NCBI GenBank assembly: GCA_965204055.1
Contig: OZ241967.1
Coordinates: 1,801,362-1,865,361, forward strand
Length of the DNA: 64,000 nt
Source of the DNA: Bdellovibrionales bacterium
GTDB lineage: Bacteria; Bdellovibrionota; Bdellovibrionia; Bdellovibrionales; UBA1609
Direction of reading: 5' to 3'
In this document: piece by piece, positions 45,648-52,216 of the stretch
Layout of the letters: every line of letters starts with the position of its first letter
How positions within the stretch are numbered: the first letter of the stretch is position 1
Notes under the pieces: generated by a model
The model's database searches: none
What the model saw: the letters and a program-made list of their open reading frames with translations, nothing else
Told to the model about the DNA's origin: nothing
Position numbers and translations under genes: made by a program

Positions 45648-47037
45648 ATGAATAAAAAATCACTTTTCTTTGGCGCGATTTTTATATCATACGGCCTTTT
45701 AAGTCTTTTTTATGTTTTTCTATCTGGATGTGATTATGACGCCCCCCCCCCATTTTCCAAAAAAGTCCACACCTAAAGAAACCAAGGTTAAAAAAGACAT
45801 CCAGTTTTGCGATAAAGCCAGTGAAGAAAACTCTTGCAAAAAAAACTCTTCTTGCAAAAAAGATTGCGACAAAATTTTTTCTGAAAAAGAAAATGAAGAA
45901 AAATGCCAAGCCCTCCCAACAAACACAGTTAAAGCCTTTAAAACCTTAACTCAGCAAACAAAAGATAAGGACGAAATTCAAGAAATAGCTCCTAAAACCT
46001 TGGGTTGTTTTTTGCAAATTGATCCAGAAGAGTTTGCCGATTTAATAAAAACGGCCAGTCGCCAAACCACAAAGAATTTTTTAGTAGCTATAGCAGAAAG
46101 TAAAGCCTTGGCAGAGGCTTTAGAAAACAAGGACAGTGATTTTGATGTGTTGGAAGAGCTTTTTGAAAAAGCCGTGGGGGGCAAGAATCTGCATCGTGTA
46201 TTAACCCGGTCTATAGAGGATGGGAAAACTTTTTTACAAATAGCTGAGGAGGAAGAAAGCAATCAACCTGCCTTTTACTATTTGGATAACTATGTGGATT
46301 TAAGGTGCGAAGATGAGGATAATTTTTGCGGAGATAAGGAGGAGTCTTTAACGGCTTATTGTAAGGCTTTGGTTCGTTTAAGTGATAATAATTTAGAGGA
46401 TTTTTTAGATAATGCAAAGCACTTTGAGGAGGAATATTCAGGAGAAGTAAAAGACGCGGGATTTGATTATGATGAAGAGGGTTTTCGGGATTTTTGTTCT
46501 GATGATGATAGGGGGAGTAGTTCCGGCAGTGGTTCGTCTTCCGGCACGGGATCTACCCCTACTCCTGTTACCCCATGCCCTAACAGTAATCCTCCATCAG
46601 AACAAAAGCTGGCGGAAATTACTTTTTATCACCATGCCGATCAACCCAGTCTTCAGAGATATGAATATCGTCCCGCTCGTTTTTTTATTGATACCAATGT
46701 TCTAGGAGGCTCTGATATTAGGGGTAGTAGCACTCCCTCTACCATTAATGTTCTTCCAGGCATTTTAACCAGGACAGATAGGCCTCAATGGACACAAGTT
46801 TGGTTAAAAATAAGTGCAATACCAGGTTTTGATTTTAGTAACAATACCTGGTATATTTATATTGCAGGCACACGTTACACCTTAACTAGATCCAGTCCCT
46901 CATACACAGGAGGTGGCGACACATATCAAAAATTTTCCACATCCAATAACATAGTAATCTCAGACACCAACTCGAAAGTGATTCATCTTGCCTATCAACC
47001 ATCTGGTGGTTCTTGTGTGTATATCACACAACCATAA
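45648..47037 (+). CDS. Cys-rich acidic lipoprotein, frameshifted at a C10 tract (462 aa if C9)
   Basis: ATG 45648 with aagga RBS gives signal peptide + LSGC lipobox and stops at 45776; the long frame (track 45712-47037) joins if tract 45742-45751 is C9 or C12. Confidence 0.8.
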
Positions 47038-47055
47038 AATATATATTTATAGTTT

Positions 47056-47204
47056 CAGGCAAAGTATCAAATAAGCCTTAAGAGATTAAACCCTTCTTTT
47101 TCGCGGATGATTGTTATTAACCTTCTCAGACAAAGTATCAAATCAACCCGGAGAGATTAAACCCTTCTTTTTCGCGGATGATTGTTATTAACCTTCTCAG
47201 ACAA
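47056..47204. repeat. 71-bp-period tandem duplication upstream of argS
   Basis: gagattaaacccttctttttcgcggatgattgttattaaccttctcagacaaa twice. Confidence 0.9.
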
Positions 47205-47288
47205 AAAATATAAAGAATACTCTTGACTATGAATAATTATAAAGAAAATATTAATCTTCAGTAGCTATATAGTAATTAGTGATAAAGT

Positions 47289-49166
47289 ATGTTTTTTTTG
47301 GCTGTCATTTATTACAAACCACACTTTAGGAAAAATATAAAAATGAACTCTAATAATAAAAAAACTCAAACAACTACAGCAAAACAGTCAAATCACTTCT
47401 TTTTAGATGTGTTTACAAAAAAAATATGTTTAGAGCTATCTCAAAAAATAACAAATCTGTTTCAAATAAAGATAACCCCTTATGATTTAGCAACTACTTT
47501 TGGCCCTCCTCCTGCCACAGAAAAAGGACATTGGGCTTTGCCTTGTTTTTTCCTTGCTCAACAGCTTAAAAAAAAACCAGCAGAAGTAGCTCTTCAAATA
47601 GCAAAAGCTTATGATAACAGTAACTCACCTGTGTTTGAAAAAGCCCTTAATAAAGGCCCTTATGTTAATTTCTTTTTTAAGAAAGATTTTTTAAAGAACC
47701 ATCTTTTAACTTCTATTTTAACTAATGATTTTTTTCATACTCCAGCTAAAAAAATAGGCTCTTATCTTATTGAGTATTCACAGCCCAACACCCATAAGGA
47801 ATTGCACATAGGCCACACCCGAAACCTTTGTTTTGGCTTAAGCCTTGTTACTCTTTTGAAAAAAAGAGGTTTCCCGGTCATCACCTGCACTTACCCTGGA
47901 GATATGGGGACTCATGTGGCTAAGTGTCTTTGGTATCTTAAATATTACAACAAAGGTGTTCCCACTCATCAAAAAGGCCAGTGGTTGGGTGCAATTTACA
48001 CAAAAGCGTTCCAAAAATATAAAAAAGAAGAAGAAAACCCCTCAAAGAAAGAAAAAAACAAACAGCAGTTAGCAGAAATTTTACAGCAGTTGCAAAAACA
48101 GCAAGGGGAATTTTACGACTTATGGAAGCAAACACGTAGGTGGAGCAAAGATCTTATGGATGAAGTTTATGAATGGGCAGGAGCGAAGTTTGATTATTGG
48201 TATTGGGAATCAGAAATAGATAAACCCTCTGTCCAATGGGTAAAAGAGTTGTTACAACAAAAAAAACTTAAGCTTTCTGAAGGGGCGATCGGGCTGGACC
48301 TAAATGAGCTACTTGGGTTTTGTCTGCTTTTAAAATCAGATGGAAACGGGCTTTACGCCACAAAAGATCTTTATCTGGCCAGAAAAAAGTTTGCAGATCA
48401 TAACATTTCAGAAAATATTTATATTGTAGATCAACGACAATCCACACATTTTCAACAAATTTTTGAAACTCTAAAACAAATTGGCTTAACTAAAGAAGGA
48501 GAAAAGTCTCAGCATTTAAAATACAATTTTGTCCAGTTAAAAACAGGTGCTATGAGCTCTCGCGCCGGCAACATTGTCCCTATTATGAAACTAATAAGGG
48601 AAATGACAAAGTATATATCCACCGCGTTTTTACAAAAATATAAGGACAAATGGCCAGAAGAAAAAATTAAAAACACCGCAAATATTATTGCCCAAGGAGC
48701 TATCAAATACGGAATGAATGAGCAGGAGTTAAATAAAAAAATTATCTTTGACATGAAAGAGTGGCTAAAGTTAGACGGACGCTCCGGCCCTTATATACAA
48801 TATGCTCATGCTCGCGCCTGCTCGCTTTTAAAAAAGCTTGACGCTTTTGAAAATAATAAAAACACACTAACAAAAAATATTAATATAAACTATCTTAACT
48901 CCCCCGAAGAGTGGCAGTTAATCTTGCAGATGTCCTGGTTTTCTCTCATCTTAGAGAAAGCGAGCTGGCAGATGAAAACCTCTATAGTGTGCCATTATCT
49001 TTTTGAGCTGGCTCAAAAATTTTCGCGATTTTACCAAAATTGCCCTATAGGAACTTTAGACAATGAAGAGCAAAAACAATTTCGTTTGTTTTTAGTTCAA
49101 GCTGTCCGAAAAACCCTGAAAGAAGGTTTGTCTGCTCTTTCTATCCCCGCCCCTGAACAAATGTAA
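47289..49166 (+). CDS. argS: Arginine-tRNA ligase
   Basis: EYSQPNTHKELHIGH, YATKDL, MSSRAGN, GPYIQYAHAR; the start may be ATG 47343. Confidence 0.95.
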   Translation: MFFLAVIYYKPHFRKNIKMNSNNKKTQTTTAKQSNHFFLDVFTKKICLELSQKITNLFQIKITPYDLATTFGPPPATEKGHWALPCFFLAQQLKKKPAEVALQIAKAYDNSNSPVFEKALNKGPYVNFFFKKDFLKNHLLTSILTNDFFHTPAKKIGSYLIEYSQPNTHKELHIGHTRNLCFGLSLVTLLKKRGFPVITCTYPGDMGTHVAKCLWYLKYYNKGVPTHQKGQWLGAIYTKAFQKYKKEEENPSKKEKNKQQLAEILQQLQKQQGEFYDLWKQTRRWSKDLMDEVYEWAGAKFDYWYWESEIDKPSVQWVKELLQQKKLKLSEGAIGLDLNELLGFCLLLKSDGNGLYATKDLYLARKKFADHNISENIYIVDQRQSTHFQQIFETLKQIGLTKEGEKSQHLKYNFVQLKTGAMSSRAGNIVPIMKLIREMTKYISTAFLQKYKDKWPEEKIKNTANIIAQGAIKYGMNEQELNKKIIFDMKEWLKLDGRSGPYIQYAHARACSLLKKLDAFENNKNTLTKNININYLNSPEEWQLILQMSWFSLILEKASWQMKTSIVCHYLFELAQKFSRFYQNCPIGTLDNEEQKQFRLFLVQAVRKTLKEGLSALSIPAPEQM

Positions 49167-49197
49167 TACATTAAACCTTTGATACAACACAATAAAT

Positions 49198-49480
49198 CTT
49201 CTCAAAATTACCTCTTTTTGAGAAGATACGACAATACATGTAACAAAAACAAGCATTCTTGAGAAAATGAAAAATATCTGCTTCTCAAAATTACCTTTTT
49301 TTGAGAAGATACGGGAATACATGTAACAAAAACAAACATTTTTGAGAAGATAAAAAAGTATTTACTTCTCAAAATTACGCTTTTCTGAGAAGATAAGACA
49401 TTATATGTAACAAAAACAAACATTTTTGAGAAGATAAAACAACATATACAACAAAAACAAACATTTTTGAGAAGATAAAA
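49198..49480 (+). repeat. 83/84-bp tandem array (3 units + partial) of hairpin-containing repeats directly upstream of the Fic gene
   Basis: cttctcaaaa-N8-ttttgagaag at 49198, 49281 and 49365; tgtaacaaaaacaaacatttttgagaagata sub-unit repeated up to the ATG. Confidence 0.92.
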
Positions 49481-50530
49481 ATGAAAAACCCTATAAAACA
49501 GCCAAAAGTAGAAGAGTTAGAAAGCGTTAGAGTACTAAAGGCTCTTTCTGAGGCACACCGCTTCTTGGCTGAACTAAAAGGAATTGCCCATAGCATTCCT
49601 AACGAAAACATTTTGCTTTCCAATTTAAGACTTCAGGAAGCAAAAGAAAGCTCTGCTATTGAAAACATCATCACCACCCAAGACAGTATGTATAAACACC
49701 AAATAAACCTTGATTCACATAATACAGCTAATAAAGAAATTTACAAATATGCAAAAGCAATGGACGAGGGTTGTAAAAAAATTAAATCTGAAAAGGGCCT
49801 TTCTTTAAATACCATTCTTAAAGTTCAAAGAATTATTAAAAGTAATCGTCCGGGGTTTCGAAAACTTCCGGGGACTGTATTAAAAAATAACATCACACAA
49901 AATATTGTTTATACCCCTCCCTCTCCTGAAAAAATTCCAAAGCTTATGAATCGGCTGGAGAATTTTATTAATAAAAATTCCATAGATCCTCTTATAAAAA
50001 TGGCCATTGTTCATCATTGGTTTGAGAGCATTCACCCTTTTTATGATGGCAACGGCAGGACAGGCCGTATTATCAATATCCTTTACTTGATTTGTAAAGA
50101 GCTTTTAGACAGTCCTATTTTATATCTTAGTCGCTATATCAACAGATACAAATCCGATTATTACAAATTACTTCAGCAGGTGAGAGAGCAAGAGGTTTGG
50201 GAAGATTGGATTATTTATATGTTACAAGCGGTTTCTGTTACCTCTCAGGAAACAACTAAGTTAATTAAAAAAATAGATAAGTTGCTTACTGAATACAAAC
50301 ATATTATTCGTGAAAAGCATAAGTTTTATTCCCACGATTTGATAAATAATATCTTTTCTCATCCCTATACTAAAATAAAGTTCTTAGAAAAAGATATGAA
50401 AGTTTCCAGAGCTACTGCTACTCGTTACCTGGATGCACTAACAGAAGATAAAATTTTGAAAAAAAATAAATTAGGAAAAGAAAGTTATTATGTTAACACA
50501 AAACTTTTTGAATTGCTAAAAAGCTCTTAA
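49481..50530 (+). CDS. Fic-domain protein, class II (SoFIC/SO_4266-like)
   Basis: HPFYDGNGRTGR; N-terminal inhibitory SSAIEN; LAELKG...PNENIL; C-terminal HTH VSRATATRYL. Confidence 0.92.
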   Translation: MKNPIKQPKVEELESVRVLKALSEAHRFLAELKGIAHSIPNENILLSNLRLQEAKESSAIENIITTQDSMYKHQINLDSHNTANKEIYKYAKAMDEGCKKIKSEKGLSLNTILKVQRIIKSNRPGFRKLPGTVLKNNITQNIVYTPPSPEKIPKLMNRLENFINKNSIDPLIKMAIVHHWFESIHPFYDGNGRTGRIINILYLICKELLDSPILYLSRYINRYKSDYYKLLQQVREQEVWEDWIIYMLQAVSVTSQETTKLIKKIDKLLTEYKHIIREKHKFYSHDLINNIFSHPYTKIKFLEKDMKVSRATATRYLDALTEDKILKKNKLGKESYYVNTKLFELLKSS

Positions 50531-50581: not shown

Positions 50582-50738
50582 AGGTTTTTTTGCAAGAGCC
50601 ACCAACCTATGGATCCACCCTGCCTTCTTTGAAAAACACCCCATGTCTTAGGGTTTTTGTAAGAACCACCAACCTATGGATCCACCCTGCCTTCTTTGAA
50701 AAACATCCCATGTCTTAGGGTTTTTGTAAGAACCACCA
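50582..50738. repeat. 67-bp-period tandem duplication including the epimerase gene 3' end
   Basis: accaacctatggatccaccctgccttctttgaaaaaca at 50601 and 50668; ggtttttgtaagaaccacca three times. Confidence 0.9.
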
Positions 50739-51734: not shown

Positions 51735-51992
51735 TTACCTGTATACTTCTTTTCTATGCCCTATTTTAATCACGAAAACCGTAATGGTTTTCTTTTTAAC
51801 AGAATAGATTATTCGATAATCCCCTATTCTTAGTTTCATCAACCCTTTTAAGTTTCTCCTCAATGGTGTTCCATATTTAACAGGATCAGGAATCAGTTTT
51901 TCTTCAATAGCTCTTTTTATAAGATTACGCATTTTTTTAGGGATATTGTTCAGATCTTTTTGAATGGATTTTTTATAGACGATCTTCCACAT
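51735..51992 (-). CDS. relE: RelE/ParE-family toxin
   Basis: MWKIVY...KLRIGDYRIIY...IGHRKEVY; TAATG coupling to the antitoxin. Confidence 0.9.
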   Translation of the reverse strand: MWKIVYKKSIQKDLNNIPKKMRNLIKRAIEEKLIPDPVKYGTPLRRNLKGLMKLRIGDYRIIYSVKKKTITVFVIKIGHRKEVYR

Positions 51993-52216
51993 TATTTTGC
52001 AGACCATGTTTTTTTATGTGAAATAACAGGTTCTTTTGCTCTTTCTTCGGCAATTTTAGAAAAATATAAATCTTCCTGCAATTCCAAGGCAAACCTGGTA
52101 AGGTCAATCACTATTGCAGATAAAGAAGAGGCTTTTTTAATTTGTTTTAGTTCCCTTAACTGGCTGTAAAGCTTAGGGTCTACTGTAAGATTGATCCTTT
52201 TATGAGTGGTTGGCAT
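51992..52216 (-). CDS. RHH-type antitoxin of the RelE pair
   Basis: RINLTV..LY..L RHH pattern, ALELQEDLY; upstream of and coupled to the toxin. Confidence 0.8.
   Translation of the reverse strand: MPTTHKRINLTVDPKLYSQLRELKQIKKASSLSAIVIDLTRFALELQEDLYFSKIAEERAKEPVISHKKTWSAK

Follow-up and report, generated by a model that had tools for sequence, protein, structure and literature searches.

A 41-bp-phased array of putative operators precedes a SoFic-type fic gene in a Bdellovibrionales bacterium

Introduction

What does a stack of short repeats do when it stands directly in front of a toxin gene? This question is raised by a 64,000-nucleotide stretch of the genome of a Bdellovibrionales bacterium (contig OZ241967.1, positions 1,801,362 to 1,865,361; hereafter the window, whose own numbering is used below), in which seven repeat units of about 41 bp lie between argS and fic1, a gene for a Fic protein of the SoFic type. 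The SoFic family consists of anti-phage, abortive-infection toxins; SoFic is a single-gene toxin and defense system, and the mechanism of its restraint is an open question (PMC12249575; bioRxiv 10.64898/2026.07.09.737422). Published knowledge ends at the finding that the 100 bp upstream of the SoFic start contain DNA to which the SoFic dimer, though not a monomeric mutant, binds (bioRxiv 10.64898/2026.07.09.737422). CccR of Yersinia pseudotuberculosis, a dimeric class II Fic protein whose C terminus carries a helix-turn-helix (HTH), represses its own promoter, where its footprint is AGATAATCAT-N26-ATGATAATCT (PMC9755527). The first-pass annotation of the window, made from its letters, had offered two functions for the repeats: multiple operators for the HTH of the Fic protein, or a repeat RNA that undergoes processing, in the manner of type III toxin-antitoxin (TA) systems. 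We regard the array as probably a set of seven operators for the winged helix of Fic1 itself, through which fic1 would be autoregulated.

Fic1 and the anatomy of the array

Judged by its domains and motifs, Fic1 is a class II SoFic-type AMP-transferase with a C-terminal winged helix. Its sequence matches the Pfam models Fic_N (E=6.5e-24), Fic (E=9.6e-21), and SoFic-like_C (PF21248, E=1.2e-21) as well as the SoFic model of PADLOC (E=3.2e-116, aa 7-347), and it aligns over nearly its full length with the solved structures of SoFic and a related E. coli-type protein (aa 4-346, E 1e-77 to 1e-80; for PDB 3EQX/9TC4, aa 8-346, E~1e-77). Both the motif SSAIEN, which has the form of the inhibitory motif (S/T)xxxE(G/N) defined previously (PMC9755527), and the catalytic motif HPFYDGNGRTGR are present, which bears out the SoFIC-like identity that the first-pass annotation had assigned. 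Residues E14, V16, L19, and K20 of Fic1 align with the SoFic interface residues E26, L28, L31, and K32 (bioRxiv 10.64898/2026.07.09.737422), and dimerization of Fic1 is predicted.

The argS stop codon (TAA, 49164-49166) and the fic1 start codon (ATG, 49481) are separated by a gap of 314 bp (49167-49480). Tandem Repeats Finder describes the repeats in this gap both as 2.9 copies with a period of 84 (49198-49439, 88% matches, score 364) and as 6.4 copies with a period of 41 (49215-49480). A repeat search placed the 84-nt copies at 49187, 49270, and 49354 (spacing 83 and 84), with a further copy offset by 41 at 49395, and returned two perfect inverted repeats, one at 49196-49227 and the other, CTTCTCAAAA-N8-TTTTGAGAAG, at 49281-49308. 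The seven units therefore amount to three 83/84-bp super-units and one additional 41-bp unit. Each unit is a dyad composed of a left arm ending in TCAAAA, eight intervening nucleotides, and the right arm TTTTGAGAAGAT, giving a 10-N8-10 geometry that recurs every 40-42 bp (Table 1). The right arms start at 49216, 49257, 49299, 49340, 49383, 49424, and 49465, that is, 41-43 bp apart; five are exact, one has a single mismatch, and one has two. The left arm CTTCTCAAAA, which produces a perfect or near-perfect palindrome, is confined to units 1, 3, and 5; in the remaining units it is replaced by TGTAACAAAA or TACAACAAAA, where CAAAA alone is retained. The first-pass annotation had reported about 280 bp of 83/84-bp units, a palindrome in each, that filled the whole gap up to the ATG. 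The repeats are real, but seven units of about 41 bp fit them better; the array covers 282 of the 314 bp and its final right arm stops 4 nt short of the start codon (TTTTGAGAAGAT-AAAA-ATG); and the palindrome holds for units 1, 3, and 5, whereas the left arm is degenerate in the other units. The GAGAAG of unit 7 lies at -12 to -7 of the fic1 ATG, which is the Shine-Dalgarno position, and one ortholog (G358) has GAGGAG there.

The sequence of the unit is specific to this locus. On the plus strand of the array, TTTGAGAAGATA occurs in five exact copies and one copy with one mismatch, a total reached by none of 100 shuffles of the window. This 12-mer has six copies in the 2.31-Mb genome, and five of them are at the array, where the longer unit is found exclusively; on this ground, we rejected a dispersed repetitive extragenic palindromic element or miniature inverted-repeat transposable element. 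Replicon iterons were rejected as well, the neighbors being argS and an epimerase gene without a replication initiator. The array region has no Rfam match. Open reading frames (ORFs) on the minus strand across the array were rejected as coding because the 40-42-bp period is mostly no multiple of 3 and varies among 40, 41, and 42 bp in orthologs.

Table 1. Positions of the array, fic1, and associated features. Positions are those of the window, except for the two paralogs, which are given as genome coordinates (C1).
Feature	Position	Strand	Description
argS (arginyl-tRNA synthetase)	47289-49166	+	Pfam tRNA-synt_1d, DALR_1, Arg_tRNA_synt_N; upstream neighbor
Weak candidate sigma-70 promoter	49179-49208	+	TTGATA-18-CAAAAT; consensus scan, 9/12 matches; overlaps first left arm
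Whole operator array (putative)	49196-49477	no strand	282 bp, seven ~41-bp units
Unit 1	49196-49227	no strand	perfect dyad ATCTTCTCAAAA-N8-TTTTGAGAAGAT; 12-nt arms, 100% complementary
Unit 2	49239-49268	no strand	degenerate dyad TGTAACAAAA-N8-TCTTGAGAAAAT; weakest right arm, 2 mismatches
Unit 3	49281-49310	no strand	perfect dyad CTTCTCAAAA-N8-TTTTGAGAAGAT
Unit 4	49322-49351	no strand	TGTAACAAAA-N8-TTTTGAGAAGAT; left arm down to CAAAA
Unit 5	49365-49394	no strand	dyad CTTCTCAAAA-N8-TTCTGAGAAGAT, one mismatch
Unit 6	49406-49435	no strand	TGTAACAAAA-N8-TTTTGAGAAGAT
Unit 7	49447-49476	no strand	TACAACAAAA-N8-TTTTGAGAAGAT
fic1	49481-50530	+	349-aa class II Fic protein of the SoFic type (Pfam, PADLOC, PDB)
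N-terminal helix	49511-49579	+	aligns with SoFic dimerization helix
Inhibitory-helix motif SSAIEN	49649-49666	+	aa 57-62; fits (S/T)xxxE(G/N)
Catalytic motif HPFYDGNGRTGR	50033-50068	+	aa 185-196; fits HxFx(D/E)GNGRxxR
C-terminal winged helix	50288-50506	+	SoFic-like_C (PF21248), aa 270-342
Putative recognition helix SRATATRYL	50405-50431	+	helix conservation and core covariation
Fic2	C1:1985257-1986336	-	41 bp x 2.3 upstream array
Fic3	C1:2266862-2268022		array on AACTTCCAAAA-N8-TTTTGGAAGT

Array and gene occur together in relatives

A tandem array by itself is unremarkable in this genome (a single contig with 36.4% G+C, whose closest public relatives are metagenome-assembled "Bdellovibrionales bacterium" genomes), because the genome is crowded with tandem repeats: it holds 318 non-overlapping arrays with a period of at least 20 and a score of at least 100, among which the fic1 array ranks about 78th by score. 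What is unusual about the fic1 array is its link to the gene. We searched 109 genomes of the same bacterial family with the protein and then inspected the upstream DNA. Nine orthologs (51-81% identity) carry from 1 to 13 units of the form ..TCAAAA-N8-TTTTGAG.AG.T, spaced 40-42 bp apart: one unit in G291 (a pseudogene), two in G351, two to three in G358, three each in G361 and G277, four in G349, five in G356, seven in G350, and 13 in G299, compared with the seven of the source genome (G000). An array with the same core and a 40-42-bp period, ending at or near the start codon, precedes each of the three closest homologs found in public genomes (81, 67, and 62% identity). Homologs lacking the repeats would have told against the first-pass annotation; the opposite was found.

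The link does not extend to the surroundings. Genes around fic differ in G356, G299, and G350, argS and the epimerase gene are shared only with G349, where they are rearranged, and no other gene is conserved beside the array among the orthologs compared. When the DNA pattern was scanned for in 384 genomes of the order, true arrays were detected only at fic1 orthologs, and the other matches were single except for one multi-copy match in G297 (see below). In one further genome (G292), the contig starts within the fic gene, as expected if the assembly broke in the repeat. Mean unit identity is 70% within a genome and 47% between genomes, with AAAA(A)-N8-TTTTGAG.AG.T as the conserved columns. On this evidence, the arrays are an old feature that duplication remodels continually.

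An apparent array of the same 12-mer in G297 (9 x 45 bp) was discarded as a false positive, since it is a coding repeat of 15 aa in a secreted protein. The 319-aa protein (C1:684667-685036) is built of such repeats (KTERAQTKPSQKKAP), and its DNA contains TTTTGAGAAGGT every 45 bp by coincidence, which makes it a trap for motif searches.

Several orthologs have features of their own. The closest one, in G349, has HPFYDGNSRTGR, in which Ser replaces the second Gly of GNGR, and keeps its four-unit array; judging by this substitution, the protein may be catalytically weakened. The pseudogene in G291 has three in-frame stops, yet a single intact dyad, TGTTCAAAA-N8-TTTTGAGCAAGG, still precedes its start. 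Downstream of fic in G299 is a gene for a 411-aa protein with a type I restriction HSDR_N_2 domain, and the two genes overlap by 4 nt; an ATP-grasp-like gene lies downstream of fic in G350.

Putative recognition helix and array core change together

Wherever the core is TTTTGAG[A/C]AG, the putative recognition helix either reads SRATATRYL or departs from it at one or two positions; it is HRNTARRYL or TRITAKKYL where the upstream motif differs. Clade by clade, SRATATRYL is paired with the core TTTTGAGAAG, ITYQTASKYL with TTAATATA/TATATTAA, and SLQTVLRSL with AACTTCCAAAA. Thus, recognition helix and core change together between clades.

Substitutions within the array itself were compared as well. 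Among the three super-units, 3 of 44 columns vary in the arms versus 16 of 40 outside them (Fisher p=4.5e-4). This avoidance covers all four classes of arm; since the degenerate left arms are spared too, each copy appears to be under constraint.

Paralogs and the wider SoFic family

The source genome has seven genes with a Fic motif. Three of them encode Fic_N, Fic, and a winged helix, and all three have upstream arrays; no upstream array was found at the other four. The Fic2 array (C1:1986358-1986453) has the core ATATTAAA..TTTAATAT together with TTGACT and TATAAG; these two are brought to an 18-bp spacing by the last unit alone, which is shortened. The Fic3 array lies at C1:2266550-2266830. 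In G299, arrays precede all three Fic copies (41 x 12.7, 41 x 14.3, and 70 x 5.6).

Similar sites were then sought upstream of 57 SoFic-like genes from several phyla and from plasmids. In 20 of these 57 regions, the best inverted repeat was matched by at most 1 of 40 shuffles, where about three such regions are expected. In the form that recurs across the family, a specific 6-8-mer and an A-tract are separated by 4-8 nt from a T-tract and the mirrored 6-8-mer. For the 43 genes that do not belong to the TTTTGAG clade, we also tallied, over 260 bp of upstream DNA, the offsets at which 10-mers recur directly with at most one mismatch; same-sized coding windows served as the control. Recurrence at 40-42 bp was detected at 24 of the 43 loci versus 1 of 43 in the control; the peak is sharp, with 14 loci at an offset of 40 bp and 10 at 41 bp, and minor peaks lie at 30, 70, and 82 bp. 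Plasmid examples from cultured bacteria are those of Psychrobacter (40), Azotobacter salinestris (42), and Vibrio vulnificus (41, 41). The norm of the SoFic family is two or three phased dyads, of which Bdellovibrionales carry amplified versions.

Plasmid-borne SoFic-like genes often adjoin genes for methyltransferases or restriction subunits. A metagenome scan with the loose pattern TTTTGARAAGRT-N24-32-TTTTGARAAGRT returned at least 80 loci, with no Fic gene among the matches listed, which were unrelated TTTTGAAAAGGT repeats and coding repeats. In viral contigs, the exact dyad had one match, in a phage coding region, and the direct pair had none; no phage-borne decoy sites were seen for this core.

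A model of autoregulation

The array-gene link, the phasing across the family, the covariation of helix and core, and the constraint on the arms favor operators for the C-terminal winged HTH, the first of the two functions offered in the first-pass annotation, and this reading agrees with the DNA binding of CccR and SoFic. Comparison supports the assignment as operators; Fic1 binding in this organism, its cooperativity, the resulting repression, the position of the promoter, and any benefit of seven sites over two or three are inferred.

Within a dyad, the hexamers CTTCTC and GAGAAG are 22 bp (about two helical turns) apart and the arm centers 18 bp apart, which corresponds to 61-75 Å. The DNA-binding helices of CccR are 70 Å apart (PMC9755527), a similar distance; therefore, one dimer per dyad is plausible, and a single Fic1 pair, dimerized through its N terminus, could span one dyad. 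The 40-42 bp between dyads are about four helical turns, so successive dimers would be aligned on the same side of the helix, an arrangement that cooperative binding usually requires, and could bind cooperatively. Bound Fic1 would shut off fic1 transcription, either because it occludes a promoter located at or within the array or because the occupied sites form serial roadblocks in the leader. With an upstream promoter, leak-through would drop multiplicatively with the number of sites; with a promoter inside the array, the bound sites would cover it. The last site, which spans the ribosome-binding region, could hinder initiation too. The outcome would be a tight, switch-like negative autoregulation of a toxic AMP-transferase.

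Several observations weigh against this model. The units contain no convincing sigma-70 promoter, the sole candidate (49179-49208) being weak, which is why repression is framed here as either occlusion or roadblock. The half-sites recur as direct repeats, which do not match a strictly two-fold symmetric dimer, and the model requires that the degenerate left arms count. In G299, most internal units have GAAAAG rather than GAGAAG, and the geometry of the CccR operator differs from that of the fic1 dyads. Finally, the source genome forms tandem repeats everywhere, and copy number is high at all three Fic genes of G299 (13, 14, and 5.6), so genome-level repeat dynamics, rather than selection on the gene, may set it. 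Copy number may be explained in part by the general habit of tandem duplication of the genome.

Alternative explanations

This last point can be taken further. Only two or three operators may matter, the additional copies being a functionless by-product of tandem duplication in this lineage, perhaps through slippage at palindromes; we consider this a possible explanation, if not the likely one. It would account for the 318 tandem arrays of the source genome, the usual two to three sites outside Bdellovibrionales, the expansion at all three Fic genes of G299, the higher unit identity within genomes than between them (0.70 vs 0.47), and the spread of copy number from 1 to 13 among close relatives. 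On the other hand, substitutions after duplication avoid all four arm classes, as if each copy were constrained, multi-copy arrays are retained in orthologs down to 62% identity, and every expansion keeps the 40-42-bp register. Alternatively, the array might act mainly as a DNA scaffold or sponge that holds a set number of Fic dimers and sets their AMPylase or deAMPylase state, the dimers being released or activated by a change at the DNA or protein level, e.g., phage attack. DNA binding induces dimerization of Coxiella CbFic2 and switches its AMPylase/deAMPylase activity (PMC10628234), AMPylation of EF-Tu by SoFic requires the dimer (bioRxiv 10.64898/2026.07.09.737422), and up to 13-14 sites would dock about 26-28 monomers. 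However, CbFic2 binds DNA non-specifically (PMC10628234), in CccR, regulation and toxicity are reported to be independent of each other (PMC9755527), and a single chromosomal array is a small sink; a role as a scaffold is thus unlikely. An elaborate version of it, to which we give a low probability, would have a chromosomal docking lattice serve a one-gene toxin as its "antitoxin": the DNA would store SoFic dimers, fixed in number, in an inactive or deAMPylating state, the 40-41-bp register would let them polymerize along one face of the helix, each paralog would have an orthogonal lattice, and loss of the lattice (by phage-induced DNA damage, by a replication fork passing the lattice, or by titration by incoming DNA) would free the active AMPylase.

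The units could instead be promoter or UP-like elements whose stack boosts fic expression, or sites read by a regulator other than Fic. A/T tracts in the units are phased with the helix, and the Fic2 units contain the hexamers TTGACT and TATAAG, which stand 18 bp apart in the last unit. In the fic1 units, by contrast, the spacing between the best hexamers is 10-13 bp or a -10 element is missing, for which reason sigma-70 promoters within the units were rejected, and promoter-like sites in the array region are no more numerous than in its shuffles; a separate regulator is at odds with the lack of any other gene conserved beside the array and with the covariation of the cores with the helix of Fic itself. 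Both variants are improbable. Least probable by our estimate, and very much so, is that the repeats act as RNA, be it a processed type III antitoxin or leader hairpins that control translation. Tandem direct repeats do stand directly 5' of a toxin gene, their plus strand folds far better than shuffles (z=-5.8, three hairpins), and the GAGAAG arms are Shine-Dalgarno-like and could be masked by CTTCTC arms. But low fold energies follow trivially from inverted repeats, and folding does not discriminate between the readings. Fic is an AMP-transferase according to Pfam, PADLOC, and PDB matches and not an endoribonuclease; neither a terminator between array and gene nor an Rfam match is present; the pairing of CTTCTC with GAGCAG leaves an uncompensated T.C mismatch in every palindromic unit of G356 and in the one full palindrome of G358; in G299, inverted arms are absent from the 13-unit array, for which neither a per-unit nor a centroid fold is defined; and a strict 40-42-bp phasing over unrelated sequences fits the helical repeat of duplex DNA rather than RNA. 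The processed repeat RNA proposed in the first-pass annotation is not sustained by these data, and operators for Fic1 remain the preferred reading.

Neighboring genes and other repeats

The neighbors of fic1 are argS upstream and a convergent epimerase gene downstream, and a terminator scan found no plus-strand terminator-like site between argS and the array. Two other tandem repeats, each unique in the genome, lie nearby. One (50587-50738, 67 bp x 2.3, 96% matches) fills the gap from the fic1 stop to the epimerase gene and contains a 42-aa ORF (50590-50718) with a TTG start and no Pfam match; the other (47055-47205, 71 bp x 2.1) lies just 5' of argS. Further upstream of argS, a 441-aa ORF (45712-47037) is rich in Asp, Glu, and Ser, has a Gly/Ser tract, and belongs to no Pfam family. 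At 51735-52216 on the minus strand, two genes downstream of fic1, a ParE-family toxin gene (Pfam E=2.5e-11) overlaps a 74-aa ORF that precedes it and lacks a Pfam match; the two are probably a type II TA pair. The repeat list of the genome is dominated by GC-rich 82-90-bp tandem arrays of one family (CCCGCTTTGCGGG ... TTATCCATGTCCC) with up to 16 copies, which are unrelated to the Fic array.

Significance

The comparison yields an operator grammar for the family, in which a specific hexamer with its A-tract is followed, after N4-8, by a T-tract with the same hexamer mirrored, in a 40-41-bp register that is conserved across phyla. Nature also supplies arrays of 1 to 14 units and, in one genome, three orthogonal protein-array pairs; these variants are material for studying how cooperative and how specific binding is and whether it may be linked to enzyme activity. 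For annotation, the caution is that such an array in front of a Fic gene should be taken neither for a CRISPR-like array nor for an RNA antitoxin.

Comparison with known systems

Like CccR, Fic1 is a class II protein with an N-terminal inhibitory motif, a C-terminal DNA-binding domain, and one or more palindromes in its own upstream region. CccR has a single mapped operator, with 10-bp arms 26 bp apart (10-N26-10), and no tandem array, whereas the fic1 dyads are of the 10-N8-10 type. Furthermore, CccR is only distantly related to SoFic (29% identity, 45% coverage; PMC9755527) and, unlike the SoFic type, is a type VI secretion system effector that targets FtsZ. The nearest relatives of known structure, SoFic/MloA of Shewanella oneidensis and EcSofic of E. 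coli (PDB 3EQX, 9TC4, and 9VJC), are full-length homologs with the same three domains as Fic1, and the residues aligned at the dimer interface are conserved. The toxicity of EcSofic is such that cloning succeeded only under the control of three lac operators, and an antitoxin of 47 aa, AS1, is reported downstream of it (PMC12249575); none is evident at fic1. Neither the SoFic paper nor the EcSofic paper defines an operator sequence, a spacing, or a repeat array. A full-text search, like the papers cited here on CccR, SoFic, CbFic2, and EcSofic, yielded no account of a repeat array or a 40-41-bp register before Fic genes; thus, the statement of the first-pass annotation that such an array has not been described holds in the searched literature, although single operators and promoter binding have been. 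Self-repression is known for the family, and it is the multiplied, 41-bp-phased layout that is undescribed there.

Two toxin-antitoxin systems invite comparison. In the type III system ToxIN, the repeat RNA ToxI is cut by the endoribonuclease toxin, and a terminator precedes the toxin gene. The fic1 locus resembles it in having tandem short direct repeats immediately upstream of a toxin gene and differs from it in that the product is no endoribonuclease and no terminator separates array and gene. AbiEi-type winged HTH antitoxins bind cooperatively to paired inverted repeats in their own promoter and thereby autoregulate. There, a separate antitoxin binds two sites; in the SoFic type, toxin and DNA binder are one polypeptide, and the sites number up to 13-14.

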